The translations under genes and the position numbers were made by a program. A stretch of DNA of 64,000 nucleotides from a virus, in IMG/VR virus record IMGVR_UViG_3300035696_000005, positions 96,001 through 160,000 of that record; one strand, written 5' to 3'. The notes below the pieces were generated by a model. It saw only the letters and a list, made by a program, of their open reading frames with translations, had not been told where the DNA came from and did no database searches. This document shows positions 2,750 to 30,880 of the stretch, in pieces; position 1 is the first letter of the stretch, and each line of letters starts with the position of its first letter.

Positions 2750-3226
2750 CTAGAGGTAATACTTCTTAGCCGAGGCTTTGGAAATAAATGCATGAAGCCC
2801 GTGAGAGCACTGACCAGCCGCTGCCGCAAACTTATACGCCGGTTTATGCCATTTACCAACCACCCAGCGAAATTTCCCCTCCGCAGATTTCTTTTTCTTG
2901 TTCAGTTGGGAATAAATGATATTGTAGGTGTGGCCGGGGAAGAATTCTTTCTCACTGATCGGGTTTCCACTGCGGCTTTCTGCTTTGACAACAAACGCGG
3001 CAGAAACTCTGAGCTTGTCGTGGCGACTGTTACCATTCCTTCTCTTTGCATCCGCAGGAACATAAAGAGTCAGGATCGCAACATTTTTTCTGCGCCCATT
3101 CTGATCAGGGACAATCACTTTCTTAAATGCGATGAAATCCTTACCTACCTGTGGCACCCGTGCCATTCTTTCATTTTCTTTAAGCAACTTCTTAATCAGT
3201 GCGCTGCTTGGTTTTTTTCTTGTCAT
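2750..3226 (-). CDS. DUF5758-like phage protein (paralogue 2)
   Basis: FKKV...ILTLYVPADAKRRNG...KLRVSAAFVV; SD AAGGAG. Confidence 0.55.
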   Translation of the reverse strand: MTRKKPSSALIKKLLKENERMARVPQVGKDFIAFKKVIVPDQNGRRKNVAILTLYVPADAKRRNGNSRHDKLRVSAAFVVKAESRSGNPISEKEFFPGHTYNIIYSQLNKKKKSAEGKFRWVVGKWHKPAYKFAAAAGQCSHGLHAFISKASAKKYYL

Positions 3227-3299
3227 CTGAATCTCCTTTTTTAAATCAGTGAGGTGAGGAACTCAGCTCATGTACACTCGCACACTAGTTCCCCACCAC

Positions 3300-3378
3300 C
3301 AAAGACATCCGTGGTTTCGCTCCACAGACTACCGGTACAACAATTCCCGGAGTGCTTACCTCTTTACACCAATGTCAC
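3300..3378 (-). ncRNA. Degenerate tRNA-like cloverleaf
   Basis: GACAT/ATGTC acceptor-like stem, GTG..GGTAAG..CAC D-like arm, CCGG/CCGG arm, GTGG-AGCGAAA-CCAC T-like arm; no CCA. Confidence 0.4.
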
Positions 3379-3405
3379 CTGCCAGCCAGGATACGCCTGG
3401 CACGC

Positions 3406-3612
3406 CTATTGAAATCGCATGCTTCTACACTCGTATTCCTTATGCCCGTCTGTGATGCATTGACGAACGAGGCGTTCCCTCTCTGTCACGCTTTTGGGCG
3501 TGACGCTCAGAAACACAAGTCCCATCGACAGAAGAAACGTAAGGAATGCGATAACGACCAAAAGCTCTCCGATTTTCTTTTTCTTTTCAATTCTCGCCAA
3601 ATCCTCCCTCAT
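3406..3612 (-). CDS. Small membrane protein
   Basis: One hydrophobic helix; ATGA overlap with upstream vWA stop. Confidence 0.65.
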   Translation of the reverse strand: MREDLARIEKKKKIGELLVVIAFLTFLLSMGLVFLSVTPKSVTERERLVRQCITDGHKEYECRSMRFQ

Positions 3613-4962: not shown

Positions 4963-6174
4963 CTACAAATGAAATTCCCGAACATCCTTACGAGTCGGGC
5001 CATACGAAATTAAGCCACTTTCCGCATCAAGACTATCCAGAAGTAACTTCATGAAGTTTTCCACTGAAGTTGACTGAAGAGAACTGCTAACGTTAAAGCC
5101 GTTACCGACGTTACAGTTGTAGATGACTCCACGATCCCCTACCTGATCGGCGCAGGTGATTGCGTAGTGAGGGCGGGCTATAAGTCCTCCTCCCCTAAAC
5201 AAATCATCCATTACTCGGGCGGTTAGATAATCGAAGTCGATGATTCCGAATCTGAGATCCCCCTGATGGGCGTTCGTCACATTCGTTGTGTCAGAGGCTT
5301 TGTCGTACGGAAGCTTTTCCATCTCCTCAGGAAAGGGTCCAGCTCCGTGCCGAGTGACGTAAGTCCTTGTTACGTAGTAAACATCGATCGGGGTAGCGAT
5401 ACTCCGAGCCGCGAGCAACTTAGCCACATTTTTTAGACCCGTCTTCGACCTGGTAACATGTGGAAAGAAGGTATGATCTTCATCCAACATGAGTCCTTGA
5501 GCACCCTCAAACACAACGTTCTCGTGATCTAGCTCCAGATCCTCCCACTTGCAAATATTTGTGAGAAAAACCATCTTCTCGCAATCTCCAAGAAAGTTCT
5601 CAAGGAGCTGAGGATGGTTGAGATAAGGAAGCTTACTGTCCGAAATCTTCAGCTGATCCAATCGAGCAGGAACATACTTCTCTCGAATGTGCTTCAGCTT
5701 ATCCATAAGATCTTTTGAGAAAAGATCCTTAAAGCTTAAGGTGAAGTCGGGGTCCTGATTGCGGTGAACGGTCTCGTTAAAACCCATGCCGCAACTTCCG
5801 TGCTTCTTATCCCCCCGAGATTCCTCGGCTGCCTGGTTGATCATGATGTCAAAAGGAGTCGTAATAGGGCAGCGATGGTCGATGTAGGTGTTTGGAGCAA
5901 AGCCCATCGCAGACAGGACTTTAAGTTCCTCAACAAAGAAAATTGGGCATGCAACAAAATATTGGCTTAAGAAGGTTTCAGCTTTAGCCAGGGTACCTGA
6001 TCCGAAATGATGAAACACGTGGCGTTTTCCTTCCGGGGTAACAACGGTGTGCCCGGCTTGCGCTCCGCCATTGAAGCGAACAACCATAGAACTCGACTGA
6101 GACGAGAGATAGTCAGTGATTAATCCTTTGCCTTCGTCCCCGTAGTTTGCACCGATAACTGTTGAAATTTTCAT
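4963..6174 (-). CDS. purA: Adenylosuccinate synthetase-like protein (divergent PurA family)
   Basis: GANYGDEGKG, GGAQAGHT, FEGAQG, TRHGAGPFP. Confidence 0.85.
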   Translation of the reverse strand: MKISTVIGANYGDEGKGLITDYLSSQSSSMVVRFNGGAQAGHTVVTPEGKRHVFHHFGSGTLAKAETFLSQYFVACPIFFVEELKVLSAMGFAPNTYIDHRCPITTPFDIMINQAAEESRGDKKHGSCGMGFNETVHRNQDPDFTLSFKDLFSKDLMDKLKHIREKYVPARLDQLKISDSKLPYLNHPQLLENFLGDCEKMVFLTNICKWEDLELDHENVVFEGAQGLMLDEDHTFFPHVTRSKTGLKNVAKLLAARSIATPIDVYYVTRTYVTRHGAGPFPEEMEKLPYDKASDTTNVTNAHQGDLRFGIIDFDYLTARVMDDLFRGGGLIARPHYAITCADQVGDRGVIYNCNVGNGFNVSSSLQSTSVENFMKLLLDSLDAESGLISYGPTRKDVREFHL

Positions 6175-18207: not shown

Positions 18208-18825
18208 TTAGCTGCTGCTGACCCAGTGTCCTGCAGCGGCATCCGTGAGTCTGATCGACTCAGCGGCAGCCCACAGCTGGTACTGAGAGCCAACAGTCAG
18301 AGCATCGATTTGATCCCCTGCTTGAGGATAGATATTCAAAACCGTGGAAGGCGGCTGAATAACGAATTCGATAGATCGCCCGCTTCCAGTTGCTGCCGGA
18401 AGATTGGTGACCTGGTTATCGATGTTCTCAACAATGAATGAGTCAGTCGCCTCAACCATGTAAGGATTAGCTGGGTGATAGACTACGTTCTGGTAGTTGC
18501 CGGGAAGAGGAGCGCCTGGCGGAACAAGGTTATTGCCAGCATCAAAACTCATCAAAGCAATCATTGGTAGCTTCTGTCCGCCTGCCGTAACGAAAAATGG
18601 CGGGCGGGACTTCTCTTCAATGGTGCTCGCAGGGTGAACTTCCACGTGTGCAGCAGAAACGGTCCCAGCGCCCTGAAATGCGGTCAAGGTGTTGCTTGCG
18701 GTCGGGACGACTGCGACTGCAGCAGGAACCTTATTCCCTAATGCGTCGGTGTAATAAGCAACATCATCGTCATCGAGAATAATGTTGTGCGCCGGATTGG
18801 CGACTTCAGATGGGTTAAATGCCAT
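18208..18825 (-). CDS. Possible virion decoration/fibre-like protein
   Basis: Small-residue, beta-rich; C-terminal LPAATGSG...IYPQAGDQI...W module; own promoter and terminator. Confidence 0.45.
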   Translation of the reverse strand: MAFNPSEVANPAHNIILDDDDVAYYTDALGNKVPAAVAVVPTASNTLTAFQGAGTVSAAHVEVHPASTIEEKSRPPFFVTAGGQKLPMIALMSFDAGNNLVPPGAPLPGNYQNVVYHPANPYMVEATDSFIVENIDNQVTNLPAATGSGRSIEFVIQPPSTVLNIYPQAGDQIDALTVGSQYQLWAAAESIRLTDAAAGHWVSSS

Positions 18826-18854
18826 ATGCATACTCCTTATTTTTAGATGATTAG

Positions 18855-18883
18855 AGTATGGATAGTGACGAAGCCTATGTCAA
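18855..18883 (-). promoter_or_regulatory. Sigma70-like promoter
   Basis: TTGACA-N17-CATACT. Confidence 0.7.
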
Positions 18884-18917: not shown

Positions 18918-18995
18918 TGGCGCGCCCGTTCGGACTCGAACCGAAAACTAGCCTTTTTTAGAGAAAGGCTCCTCTACCAATTGAGGTACGGGCGC
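18918..18995 (-). tRNA. tRNA-Sup (CUA), amber suppressor with 6-bp anticodon stem
   Basis: GCGCCCG acceptor, CCTC/GAGG D stem, GCCTTT-CTCTAAA-AAAGGC, TTCGAGT T loop, G73, CCA. Confidence 0.85.
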
Positions 18996-19005
18996 ACCGA
19001 CTACG

Positions 19006-19302
19006 TTACAACAAGGGAAGGTCTTTGACCAGTGTGTCTGCTCCAAGTACTGCTACTGCCGTGAGTTGATTACCAATATCTGGCTCATAAAATGAAGAGT
19101 AAAGCTTCTCACGATATGCAAATAGATCTTGATAGTACTCAAGCTCGTCTTCACTTTTTACTACGAGGAAAACTAAAGTGCCATTATCCCAGCCAGGAGT
19201 TTTACCATACTCCAAGAGAAACTCTGCTACGGCATGCCCAGCCTGAACTGCTTTGTAGCCGGGCGTCTTTAGGTCATCCCGCACTAGCACATACAGTTTC
19301 AT
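19006..19302 (-). CDS. pth2: Peptidyl-tRNA hydrolase, Pth2 family
   Basis: KLYVLVRDDL...GYKAVQAGHA...EPD...TAVAV. Confidence 0.88.
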   Translation of the reverse strand: MKLYVLVRDDLKTPGYKAVQAGHAVAEFLLEYGKTPGWDNGTLVFLVVKSEDELEYYQDLFAYREKLYSSFYEPDIGNQLTAVAVLGADTLVKDLPLL

Positions 19303-19684
19303 GGCAAACCTCTTTGGTTTCCTCTGCAATCAATTGCGTGTAGTGGTTCAAGAGCTCATGGATCTTCTTCTCACTGGGCTTATTGCAGCAATGAGGGTTG
19401 TCCTCACATTTGCCGTACACTGGCTTACACGGAACTCTCTTCTCAATTTGCTCACGAGTCCTACCACGAATCAGACAGTACACGATGTGCCTATGGCGAA
19501 AATCAAAACGGAGCTTAGCAAGCTCAGCTTCAATCGCTCCAAGCTCTTTATTGTGCCAGCTGGTATCGCCGCCCGCCTTAGTAGTAACGCTGACCGCTTG
19601 TCTAAAGATGGGCTTCTTTTGTTTGATCAGATCTGCGGTGAGCTTGAGCTCGTTTTTGAGTTTGAGTAACGTCATCGATTTCAT
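19274..19684 (-). CDS. Conserved phage hypothetical (RHxHIxYxxxRG motif)
   Basis: SD AAGGAG before ATG 19684; FRHRHIVYCLIRGRTREQIE. Confidence 0.7.
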   Translation of the reverse strand: MKSMTLLKLKNELKLTADLIKQKKPIFRQAVSVTTKAGGDTSWHNKELGAIEAELAKLRFDFRHRHIVYCLIRGRTREQIEKRVPCKPVYGKCEDNPHCCNKPSEKKIHELLNHYTQLIAEETKEVCHETVCASAG

Positions 19685-20021
19685 TTTTGTTCTCCTTAGC
19701 CCGAAAAGTAATAATCGCCTCTGAGACCTGCCGGGTGTCATAGTCACAAAGGAGTTCAGCAATTTCTTGATTGAGTGGAACACGAAGTATCCGGTTTTTC
19801 CGGACAGTTGAAAGAGCGTAAAAACCAGTGCTGCTCTTTTCGCCTTGAGAAAGATTTCGCCCAAGCGAAATATCCACCGGCCTGATCTCATAAGAGGGAT
19901 CAAGCTTCGTTAGAATATGCTGGGCAAGGGAGCGACTAAAAGTGATTCGAAAGATGAGCGACCCTTTGCAGATCGCGTATCCTGAGTTTCCAGAACAACC
20001 TAAACAAACCTAATGTTCCAT
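19602..20021 (-). CDS. ORF with in-frame TAG at codon 4 (read-through candidate, 139 aa)
   Basis: AAGGAG SD, ATG GAA CAT TAG, then an open frame continuous with the 19602-19877 ORF. Confidence 0.5.
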
Positions 20022-20562
20022 AAGCTATTTATCTCCTTCATAAAAATATTTGTCAATCGCGCCTCTTATTTAGCTCTGCAACGAGACGTAAGTTTCACCA
20101 GTCTTAGTTTGTTAGTATTTCGATAACAAACTAATACCTGCAAAACCAGTTTGTTTTTCTTGCGTCAAATCCATGCTGCGGCGCGACTGTGGGAATGTGT
20201 GGTCCTATAGCGAAGAAGGTCCGATAGACAATGAAAATTACGGACGAGGGTTCTTATAATAAAAAATGTTTGTAGAGTCAGCGTTATTGCTTAGGGTTGC
20301 ACATTATGCACATTGCGCATAAGGTCAGTTGTAAGCGCCTGTTTTTATTTCTTTTCCTTAGAGCACCGAATGTGTAGAAAAATGTGTAAAAAACGTCAAT
20401 GTGTGGCTACCCCACGCCGCGTTATAAAGCAAATCAATCGATTAAGCTATATTTTGGTTAACAATCAACTAAAGTGCTTTTGACACACTTCTCAGACCCG
20501 CTGTGTTGAATTACACATTGAGGGTATTTCGCGCACACGCCTACACAGTACTAAAATGGTTT

Positions 20563-20828: not shown

Positions 20829-21173
20829 TTACTTGATCGGGATCAATCGGGGTCCGGCTATCTTCTGCTTCTTGAATCTGAGTTCCAAAACTCCATCTTC
20901 TAGGTGAGCGTCAATGGAGAGAGGATCTGCGCCCAAAGGGATGTCGAATATCCGCTTCAGTTCTTGGTCTCCCCTTTTTCCAGAAACAGTGATGTTTTCC
21001 CCGTTCACTTCAACTTTCAGATTCTCCTTTTTAATGCCTGGAACTTCGATTTGAAAACTGTAGCCGTCGCCTGTGTCATTATGTGGAACTATTGGAGCAA
21101 AAGGACTTCCCGGTCCAAAGAACTTTTCAGTAGCCTTCCAAAAGTCATCGAAAAAATCGTTATTATGGGACAT
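20829..21173 (-). CDS. Small heat-shock protein (Hsp20)
   Basis: EVPGIKKENLKVEV...ISGKR...IDAHLEDGVLEL; SD GAGGAGG. Confidence 0.92.
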   Translation of the reverse strand: MSHNNDFFDDFWKATEKFFGPGSPFAPIVPHNDTGDGYSFQIEVPGIKKENLKVEVNGENITVSGKRGDQELKRIFDIPLGADPLSIDAHLEDGVLELRFKKQKIAGPRLIPIK

Positions 21174-21204
21174 GGTAGCTTCCTCCTCTTGGTAATTTGA
21201 GTTT

Positions 21205-21432
21205 TCATTCATCGTTGTCAAGCATCGCCTTTTGGTCACGGATACGCAGCACCGGAGCAAACCCATATTTATGTGGTTTGCAGTGTGCGCATCCGCAACC
21301 ATAGTGATCTTTTTTAAGATGTCCAATGTGCTGGGATTTGTTGATTGTCTTCCAACAAGTGGCGCGAAGATCTCTCAATCTTCGCGCCTGCACTCGTTTG
21401 GTTTGTTCTCTTCTCCAGGCTCGATTACGCAT
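21205..21432 (-). CDS. Small basic Cys/His protein
   Basis: MRNRAWRR...CGCAHC. Confidence 0.65.
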   Translation of the reverse strand: MRNRAWRREQTKRVQARRLRDLRATCWKTINKSQHIGHLKKDHYGCGCAHCKPHKYGFAPVLRIRDQKAMLDNDE

Positions 21433-30241: not shown

Positions 30242-30573
30242 TATGTGTCTCCTTTTAGAACGGTCCTGGCTTCTATTGCAACACGCCTACAAGGCCCACA
30301 GCAATTGTTTCCGTCTGTCTTTTGCAGAATCGACTTTAGGACAGTTTCGAGCTGCTCGATCCTATCTTCGTAACGATGTCTTGTCATACTCTTTCCGCGC
30401 TTGAATGCTTCCATATCAACTCTGATCAGAGCCGCTTCAGCAAAGTCAGCTATGTCACTAGGGTGATTATGTATCCAGTCTTCGCGGATTTTTTCTGCCA
30501 CCTTTCTAAGATCCATCTGAGTTCTCTTCGGTAAGTCCATCAACCCACTTTCCGCTTTCATCTCTGGTCTCAA
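30241..30573 (-). CDS. Hypothetical protein
   Basis: Tiling; CC..C near C-terminus; start uncertain. Confidence 0.5.
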   Translation of the reverse strand: MRPEMKAESGLMDLPKRTQMDLRKVAEKIREDWIHNHPSDIADFAEAALIRVDMEAFKRGKSMTRHRYEDRIEQLETVLKSILQKTDGNNCCGPCRRVAIEARTVLKGDT

Positions 30574-30880
30574 CCTTAACCGCCTTCATTTCCTGATCGA
30601 CTTTCTCGTCGATCTTGGCAAGAACTCCAGTGACTCGGGCTGTCTCAGTCTTAAGCCAGGCTTGAAATGTTTTACTTTGAATGCAGCGTTCAAAGGCTCG
30701 TTTCTTGTTCACATGTTGGTCTCGCTCGTCACGAGCTTCGCCAACAGCACCTGAGGCTTCGTGAACTACACGAACACCTGAGTTGACCTTGTTTTGATTC
30801 TGCCCTCCCTTGCCGCCGGAGCGAAAAGTATCGACTCTAAAGTCTTTTTTGGTGACGCTGAAGAGGATTTCTTTAGCCAT
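30506..30880 (-). CDS. Class I release-factor homologue (GGQ domain; ArfB/PrfH-like)
   Basis: FRSGGKGGQNQNKVNSGVR.VH...ERDQHVNK; only 124 aa, no codon-reading domain. Confidence 0.88.
   Translation of the reverse strand: MAKEILFSVTKKDFRVDTFRSGGKGGQNQNKVNSGVRVVHEASGAVGEARDERDQHVNKKRAFERCIQSKTFQAWLKTETARVTGVLAKIDEKVDQEMKAVKVETRDESGKWVDGLTEENSDGS

Follow-up and report, generated by a model that had tools for sequence, protein, structure and literature searches.

A putative amber suppressor tRNA beside an amber-gated gene and a Pth2-fold hydrolase gene in a phage that keeps the standard genetic code

Results

An operon ending in a tRNA with a CUA anticodon

The window analysed here is a stretch of 64,000 nucleotides from a virus (positions 96,001 to 160,000 of IMG/VR record IMGVR_UViG_3300035696_000005), and all coordinates without a locus name refer to it. 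On its minus strand lies an operon with the order gated gene (19602..20021), ORF2 (19274..19684), Pth2-like hydrolase gene (19006..19302), and tRNA (18918..18995), where "gated" denotes an in-frame stop codon close to the start codon.

ARAGORN calls the tRNA at 18918-18995 (-), with a length of 78 nt and the anticodon CTA (18959-18961). When this region was searched alone, it matched Rfam RF00005 with 51.6 bits (E 1.7e-10), against a cut-off of 29; a gathering run over the whole window had missed it, and the speed filters are probably to blame. The acceptor stem, GCGCCCG/CGGGCGC, begins with the pair G1:C72 and is followed by U8 and A9. The D stem is CCUC/GAGG, with an 8-nt D loop, AAUUGGUA, that carries GG (G18G19); the variable loop is UAGUU (5 nt), the T stem is UUCGG/CCGAA with the loop UUCGAGU, and the 3' end consists of G73 and an encoded CCA. 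In the anticodon arm (18950..18970, minus strand), A26 faces a U and is followed by GCCUUU/AAAGGC around the loop CUCUAAA. Position 26 is thus occupied and followed by six Watson-Crick pairs, one more than in a standard tRNA. In the Rfam alignment, the extra G and C appear as insertions on either side of a 5-bp stem, at its top. The predicted fold has a free energy of -33.5 kcal/mol (RNAfold; z -3.7 against shuffles), and the six pairs have probabilities of 0.86-0.999 (ViennaRNA). Relative to the six-pair form, an open top G:C pair costs 3.3 kcal/mol and a 9-nt loop 1.3 kcal/mol. An earlier note, made from the letters alone, had described a CUA tRNA with a 6-bp stem (GCCTTT/AAAGGC), G1:C72, G73 and CCA; ARAGORN, Rfam and ViennaRNA bear out this description in every detail. 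Judged by sequence and predicted fold, the gene is confirmed as a genuine elongator tRNA with a UAG-reading anticodon, canonical apart from the extra pair. An exact search of viral contigs with the anticodon arm gave only a chance match in a coding region, where there is no tRNA.

ARAGORN gives the label "Pyl" to any CUA tRNA, and a pyrrolysine-type tRNA charged by PylRS is a reading that has to be weighed here. The CUA anticodon, the loop CUCUAAA, the 6-bp anticodon stem, G1:C72 and G73 are all shared with tRNA-Pyl (PMC6337575, PMC1851642). The resemblance goes no further than the anticodon arm and the acceptor end. In tRNA-Pyl, one bridging nucleotide is missing, the small D loop lacks GG, and the variable region has 3 nt (PMC6337575), whereas the window tRNA has both bridging nucleotides (U8 and A9), its D loop is 8 nt long and contains GG, its variable loop has 5 nt, and its T loop is canonical. 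Moreover, the PylRS model TIGR02367, to which control genomes responded, matched nothing in the complete phage genome. The pyrrolysine reading is therefore largely refuted and its probability is close to nil, and the separation of this tRNA from tRNA-Pyl, already drawn in the earlier note, stands.

A sigma-70-like promoter match, TTGACA-17-CATACT, was picked up by a consensus scan at 18855..18883 (-), just past the tRNA and in position to serve the next gene (18208-18831). Matches of this kind were no more numerous in the region than in shuffles.

The hydrolase gene runs from an ATG start to a TAA stop and encodes 98 amino acids; the tRNA follows after 10 nt. The match of the protein to Pfam PTH2 is weak (E 3e-4) and below the cut-off. 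Nonetheless, a profile of 47 relatives matches archaeal Pth2 structures (PDB 2zv3, E 1.9e-6), and the AlphaFold model (pLDDT 95) aligns to Pth2 structures with a Foldseek TM score of 0.83. By profile and model, the product is a divergent Pth2-fold protein, and the position given to the tRNA in the earlier note, directly downstream of Pth2 on the same strand, is correct. The window's Pth2-like gene, which starts MKLYVLVRDDL, contains no in-frame stop; the TAG that matches the tRNA is found instead in the first gene of the operon. ORF2 (136 amino acids, minus strand) lies directly upstream of the Pth2-like gene and has no match in Pfam, PHROG or the Protein Atlas.

An amber codon in the first gene

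The first gene (19602..20021, minus strand) begins ATG GAA CAT TAG GTT TGT..., that is, MEH-UAG-VCLGCSG..., with the gate at codon 4 (TAG at 20010-20012); its own terminator is TAG as well. With the residues after the TAG as the query, HMMER retrieved homologues in 126 clusters. Those of full length begin M-x(2-14)-C-x-GC..D..YAI..R.TFS, and in the window gene the conserved C-x-GC..D..YAI motif comes directly after the TAG. The next in-frame start is 45 codons on, and none precedes the conserved Cys motif. As the conserved motif adjoins the TAG and no start follows for 45 codons, the UAG is part of the coding sequence. Codon usage gives weak support for this reading frame (score 8.5). The structure model is confident (pLDDT 86), Foldseek finds no PDB match for it, and the predicted fold looks novel. 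The protein has no match in the Protein Atlas either. About two thirds of the predicted homologues are without the conserved N-terminal motif. Gene callers truncate gated genes, which matters for annotation.

Just upstream of the gated gene, at 20030-20062 (-), TTGACA stands about 17 nt before GATAAA, a site that the consensus scan did not call. If this is a promoter, the Shine-Dalgarno-like GAAGGAGA would lie inside it and the mRNA would be almost leaderless.

No related loci were retrieved with the gated protein alone as the query, or with P0009, and an HMM of the gated family found no members in the Pth2-like loci described below. A narrower alignment (A6) fetched seven loci with relatives of the gated gene. 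Three of these have an early stop together with a tRNA that would read it: MQ-TAG-TCSISGC with a CUA tRNA in locus L197, M-TGA-VCKISGC with a UCA tRNA 143 nt downstream in L198, and MS-TAG with a CUA tRNA at the gene end in L201. Two others, L199 and L200, have early TAGs and no tRNA seen in flanks of 2-2.5 kb.

The CUA tRNA of L197 (2300-2461) lies about 40 nt upstream of the TAG-gated gene and carries an insert of about 90 nt between the anticodon arm and the T arm; ARAGORN missed it without its intron mode, and Rfam scores it at 32.6 bits. In L199, a permuted tmRNA (2893-3202) lies 93 nt past the TAG-gated gene.

The phage genome keeps the standard code

The virus record comprises 182,359 bp and is rated complete by CheckV; DNA and protein searches found no close relative among GenBank phages. 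It has 19 tRNAs called by ARAGORN and four found by Rfam only, all on one strand. In the rough gene models made for this analysis, 238 genes end in TAA (136), TGA (67) or TAG (35, about 15%). Pairs of long same-frame open reading frames split by TAG are not commoner than pairs split by TAA or TGA, and no TAG-terminated gene has a convincing coding extension beyond its stop; the same-frame followers have their own start. A genome-wide scan for early amber gates returned a single convincing case. With TAG as a common terminator and only one early gate, the genome lacks the marks of code 15 and is not recoded. The earlier note had come to the same view from the window alone, naming TAG-terminated open reading frames at 2750, 4963, 34035, 35941 and 42495, and all of these are present in the gene model. 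The TAG stops of the phage appear in no way adapted to a suppressor: they have neither back-up stops nor a special base at position +4, and a strong suppressor would therefore be costly.

The module in other phages

To follow the gene neighbourhood, 80 viral and 67 metagenome loci were collected with the Pth2-like protein, and then its alignment, as the query; the two sets were merged and de-duplicated to 118 distinct Pth2-like genes on phage and metagenome contigs. A CUA tRNA lies within 2.5 kb of the Pth2-like gene in 65 of the 80 viral loci, on the same strand in all but one, and 68 of the approximately 170 tRNAs in these loci are of the CUA kind. Among the 118 distinct genes, 81 have a stop-reading tRNA within 2.5 kb and 56 have an in-frame stop. 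The stop is TAG in 54 genes, accompanied by a CUA tRNA in 37, by none seen in 17, and by no other suppressor; it is TAA in two, both with a UUA tRNA. The 62 genes without an in-frame stop are accompanied by CUA (40), UUA (1), UCA (1) or no tRNA seen (20). Wherever both stop and tRNA are seen, they agree (TAG with CUA in 37, TAA with UUA in 2, and no mismatch). As the flanks extend only 2-2.5 kb, and as ARAGORN misses or misreads odd tRNAs (those of L122 and L197, for example), "no tRNA seen" weighs little.

The arrangement differs among subgroups. In the loci closest to the window, ORF2 is kept, and usually 4-50 nt separate the hydrolase gene from the start of the tRNA; in all, ORF2 gave tblastn matches in 29 of the 80 viral and 24 of the 67 metagenome loci. 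In a distant subgroup, the hydrolase gene begins M-x(1-12)-TAG without an alternative start, for example MK-TAG-IHKLIVITRRDL, and other hydrolase genes have one internal TAG; internal stops were counted in 16 Pth2-like genes. The published genome LR756500, in which the module is unannotated, has MK-TAG and a CUA tRNA. In Prevotella Lak phages, a UUA tRNA lies about 600-700 nt upstream of the Pth2-like gene on the same strand (L193 1841-1913; L194 1734-1806). The cultured phages XacN1, RAS14 and Moby have a PTH2 domain and no tRNA within 2.5 kb.

The 43 distinct early gates lie at codon 3 in 20 cases and at codons 4-15 in the remainder. The base after the gate is a purine in all 43, against 17 of the 35 TAG stops of the window phage. 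In E. coli, genetic work has established that a purine after UAG favours amber suppression. The purine after the early gates may, however, just reflect conserved Ile or Val codons. In-frame TAG is not enriched in the genes on either side of the module, which indicates that the genomes carrying the module are not recoded.

Taken by sequence, these loci represent a module, widespread in phages, in which a stop-reading tRNA stands beside a Pth2-fold hydrolase gene and a module gene contains the matching in-frame stop. The gated gene is usually that of the hydrolase itself, most often at codon 3. In the window, the hydrolase gene is ungated, so that the logic of the common form does not transfer to it directly.

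Reinitiation at ATT, ATA or GTT after a tiny upstream open reading frame was considered as another account of the early stops and rejected: many gates precede codons that are unable to start translation, and the reading is also ruled out by the 16 Pth2-like genes with internal stops and by the pairing of TAA with UUA and of TGA with UCA.

Could the tRNA instead mark an early step towards genome recoding, with the single in-frame TAG as a tolerated nonsense mutation? Suppressor tRNAs do occur in standard-code relatives of recoded phages, and such a path has been proposed (10.1101/2021.08.26.457843); that the window phage has only one gate would fit as well. Random tolerated nonsense codons would, on the contrary, be scattered, whereas the in-frame stops fall in the module's own genes, mostly at codons 3-5, in more than 100 diverged loci whose neighbouring genes are not enriched. 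In addition, the proposed path expects TAG to be depleted first, and it is not depleted here (35 of 238). We consider early recoding quite improbable.

Several features of individual loci were recorded. Internal TAA codons interrupt the Pth2-like genes of L123 (256-624) and L132 (340-733), with a UUA tRNA 6 or 68 nt downstream, and in L140 (2001-2373) a UUA tRNA accompanies an ungated gene with the double terminator TAA TAA. A second small gene family (..VFHFNKKH..PTIP.W..GFSTKETPD.PHTKG..) starts M-x-TAG in L034 (2837-3094), L055 (2100-2357) and L192 (about 2830 onward) and adjoins a gated Pth2-like gene, which suggests that more than one gene per module can be locked. In L122, beside a Pth2-like gene with an internal TAG, ARAGORN assigns the anticodon AAA to a tRNA at 2350-2424; its sequence points to a probable CUA suppressor whose enlarged loop contains CUCUAAA, closed by a weak 3-bp stem. 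Near modules in L034 (3961-4037 and 4863-4936), L061 (621-701), L069-L073 and L082, ARAGORN reports anticodons of two or four bases in 6- or 8-nt loops (for example "ttag" and "gc"), which may be quadruplet or otherwise odd decoders. GGQ genes stand beside the module in L003 and L040, that of L040 with a TAG at codon 2; L030 has a standard tmRNA (856-1252) and L196 a GOLLD RNA (3138-3583) in the same place.

The sixth pair of the anticodon stem

The loop CUCUAAA is common to nearly all suppressors of the module. The combination of an occupied position 26 with six pairs is, by comparison, found in 3 of 55 distinct CUA tRNAs of the viral loci (the window, L076, and the second tRNA of L077). The metagenome loci add L128 with six pairs and three tRNAs with an extra unpaired or mismatched position. 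These six-pair tRNAs are unrelated in sequence, which implies that the trait arose several times. The earlier note had likened the 6-bp stem to that of tRNA-Pyl; as a speciality of that kind it does not hold up, since most module tRNAs have 5 bp and non-suppressor tRNAs are extended about equally often. An extended anticodon arm is present in 6 of the 78 suppressors and 8 of the 103 other tRNAs of class I in these loci, and the extended stem was accordingly ruled out as a mark of suppressors. The sixth pair is thus a recurrent oddity of phage tRNAs, specific to lineages and not defining for the module.

An extra anticodon-stem pair could, by the geometry of tRNA, lower activity on the ribosome. 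It is conceivable that decoding by the window tRNA is abnormal, the tRNA either being inactive in elongation, as a decaying or non-translational tRNA-like gene, or presenting a 9-nt loop that reads, for instance, a quadruplet. The extra pair is uncompensated elsewhere in the cloverleaf, each of the three pairs next to the loop is U:A, and the cost of the 9-nt loop form is small (see above). The other features of the tRNA are nonetheless intact, down to the encoded CCA. The lock is a frame-0 UAG behind which the conserved protein continues in frame 0, which fits triplet reading. Six paired positions, furthermore, are found in at least three unrelated module suppressors (L076, L077 and L128) and in ordinary phage tRNAs, so that the shape appears to be tolerated. 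We regard abnormal decoding as very improbable. The literature search turned up no data on how a sixth pair affects decoding; the recent study of stem length deals with stems of 4 bp (PMC13092985).

Candidate amino acids

In bacterial MAGs, the 5' 24 nt of the window tRNA are found nearly exclusively in tRNA-Lys with CUU or UUU (13 of 16 scanned). In this comparison, anchored on the 5' half of the tRNA only, the window tRNA has the same acceptor stem and T loop as Gemmatimonadales tRNA-Lys(CUU), and the anticodon loops, CUCUUAA in the latter and CUCUAAA in the window, are one base apart. The discriminator is A73 in the matched tRNA-Lys genes as opposed to G73 in the window tRNA. The T arm joined to the 3' strand of the acceptor stem has no exact match in bacterial genomes. 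LysRS and GlnRS both read U35. In E. coli amber suppressors, a see-saw between charging by LysRS and by GlnRS is set by the 31:39 pair, with U31:A39 being intermediate (PMC1483225). Lys or Gln is our best guess for the inserted residue, and it is held with low confidence. Because the discriminator varies among module tRNAs (G, U or A) and the amber gate sits in the non-conserved leader of the gated protein, the identity of the residue is probably immaterial. The complete phage genome has no PylS and no class IIb or class Ic synthetase, and it would thus fall to the host to charge the suppressor.

Discussion

The tRNA is probably a working amber suppressor that serves as a dedicated key for the first gene of its operon, within a module that is widespread in phages. 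The earlier note had proposed that the tRNA is a regulatory or partial suppressor, its charged amino acid being unclear, and that proposal now gains support from a gate in the tRNA's own operon and from a recurrent module with matching stops. From sequence comparison, we infer that the tRNA is expressed and charged, that it reads through the gate, and that the gate serves a purpose. The tRNA would be made from the 3' end of the four-part operon transcript, co-transcription being suggested by the 10-nt spacing, and would be cut out by host RNase P and 3' trimming. Once charged by a host synthetase, it would translate the UAG of the first gene (codon 4) as sense, in frame 0, such that full-length gated protein would be made only when the tRNA is present and charged. 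The approximately 35 ordinary TAG stops of the phage would remain stops most of the time.

Two roles are plausible for the Pth2-like partner. It might clear peptidyl-tRNAs that arise from read-through or from drop-off at the early stop, or it might limit the suppressor itself. A theme of ribosome rescue is suggested by the GGQ genes, tmRNA and permuted tmRNA that adjoin related modules. A more elaborate scheme, which is speculative and rather unlikely, is a homeostat: the Pth2-fold enzyme would act on aminoacyl- or peptidyl-tRNA of the suppressor, or on short dropped peptidyl-tRNAs, and its own synthesis, or that of its partner, would need the suppressor. If that were true, read-through in a cell with the standard code would be kept low enough to be safe, and variants like the extra anticodon-stem pair would tune the competition with release factor 1.

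The same neighbours bear on another reading, in which the tRNA is a tool of host takeover or stress. It would drive ribosomes through host (and some phage) TAG stops, Pth2- and ArfB-like hydrolases would clear the resulting peptidyl-tRNAs, and the gate would act as a sensor. The tRNA does adjoin a Pth2-fold enzyme, a GGQ RF-1-domain gene is present in the same genome, and rescue elements of the kinds just listed stand beside the module in related loci; moreover, the PTH2 of phages has been read as a ribosome-rescue enzyme (Iyer et al. 2021, PMC7824862). On the other side, the TAG stops of the phage itself are without protection. This account is unlikely as it stands. It is, however, compatible with the tRNA being a key for the gated gene, to which it would add a purpose.

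Suppressor tRNAs and stop-codon switches are already known from recoded phages, and PTH2 from jumbo phages. The recoded phages (code 15 or 4; crAss-like, Lak, and the Jade "code change module"; 10.1101/2021.08.26.457843) also supply their own stop-reading tRNA, and translation of genes with in-frame stops has to wait until it appears; both cases share the notion that stop codons act as a post-transcriptional switch. The window phage differs in that it keeps the standard code and has one gene gated at codon 4, in the operon of the tRNA itself, and in that the constant partner in the module is neither a synthetase nor a release factor, but a Pth2-fold hydrolase; the preprint of Borges et al. (10.1101/2021.08.26.457843) never mentions a hydrolase. 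The jumbo-phage PTH2, for which ribosome rescue was proposed, has the same enzyme fold in large phages, and its description mentions neither suppressor tRNAs nor in-frame stops in the PTH2 gene (Iyer et al. 2021, PMC7824862). Our search of the literature, with incomplete coverage, found nothing that links phage suppressor tRNAs with PTH2, or that describes N-terminal amber gates in standard-code phages.

Two other systems invite comparison. The amber suppressors of E. coli (supF tRNA-Tyr, supE tRNA-Gln, and tRNA-Lys-derived forms) likewise have an elongator body with a CUA anticodon, and the loop of supF is the same. Unlike those laboratory suppressors, the window tRNA is a natural, conserved gene with its target in cis and an extra anticodon-stem pair. 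The prfB gene (RF2) is autoregulated through an early in-frame UGA, with a +1 frameshift sensed by RF2 itself. It is similar in that an early in-frame stop makes synthesis of the gene product depend on how the stop is read; in the window module, by contrast, a dedicated tRNA would read the stop in frame.

Suppressor tRNAs occur in many standard-code phages without an evident purpose, and the window case offers a concrete target in cis. The module spans well over a hundred diverged phage lineages, and the kind of stop always matches the neighbouring tRNA. If read-through is real, the module would be a natural one-gene switch of the genetic code with a built-in hydrolase partner, a compact system for the competition between suppressor tRNA and release factor, and a source of natural stop-reading tRNAs of unusual shape, six-pair anticodon stems included.

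Some further features of the phage genome deserve mention. A GGQ RF-1-domain gene of the ArfB-like kind (30506-30880, minus strand; Pfam PF00472, 63 bits) ends in TAG, and so does a 403-amino-acid gene at 4963-6174 (-). The latter matches PHROG 1211, the family of PurZ-type 2-aminoadenylosuccinate synthetases (E 4e-70), and because of this match, the phage may replace adenine with 2-aminoadenine (Z-genome). Just upstream of the operon lies a gene for an HSP20/alpha-crystallin small heat-shock protein (20829-21326, minus strand; Pfam E 5e-13). When bases 1-50 of the record were compared with bases 182310-182359, the first 47 bases were found to recur at the very end with one mismatch, either as a repeat inside a repetitive gene or as an imperfect terminal overlap of a circularly permuted genome.
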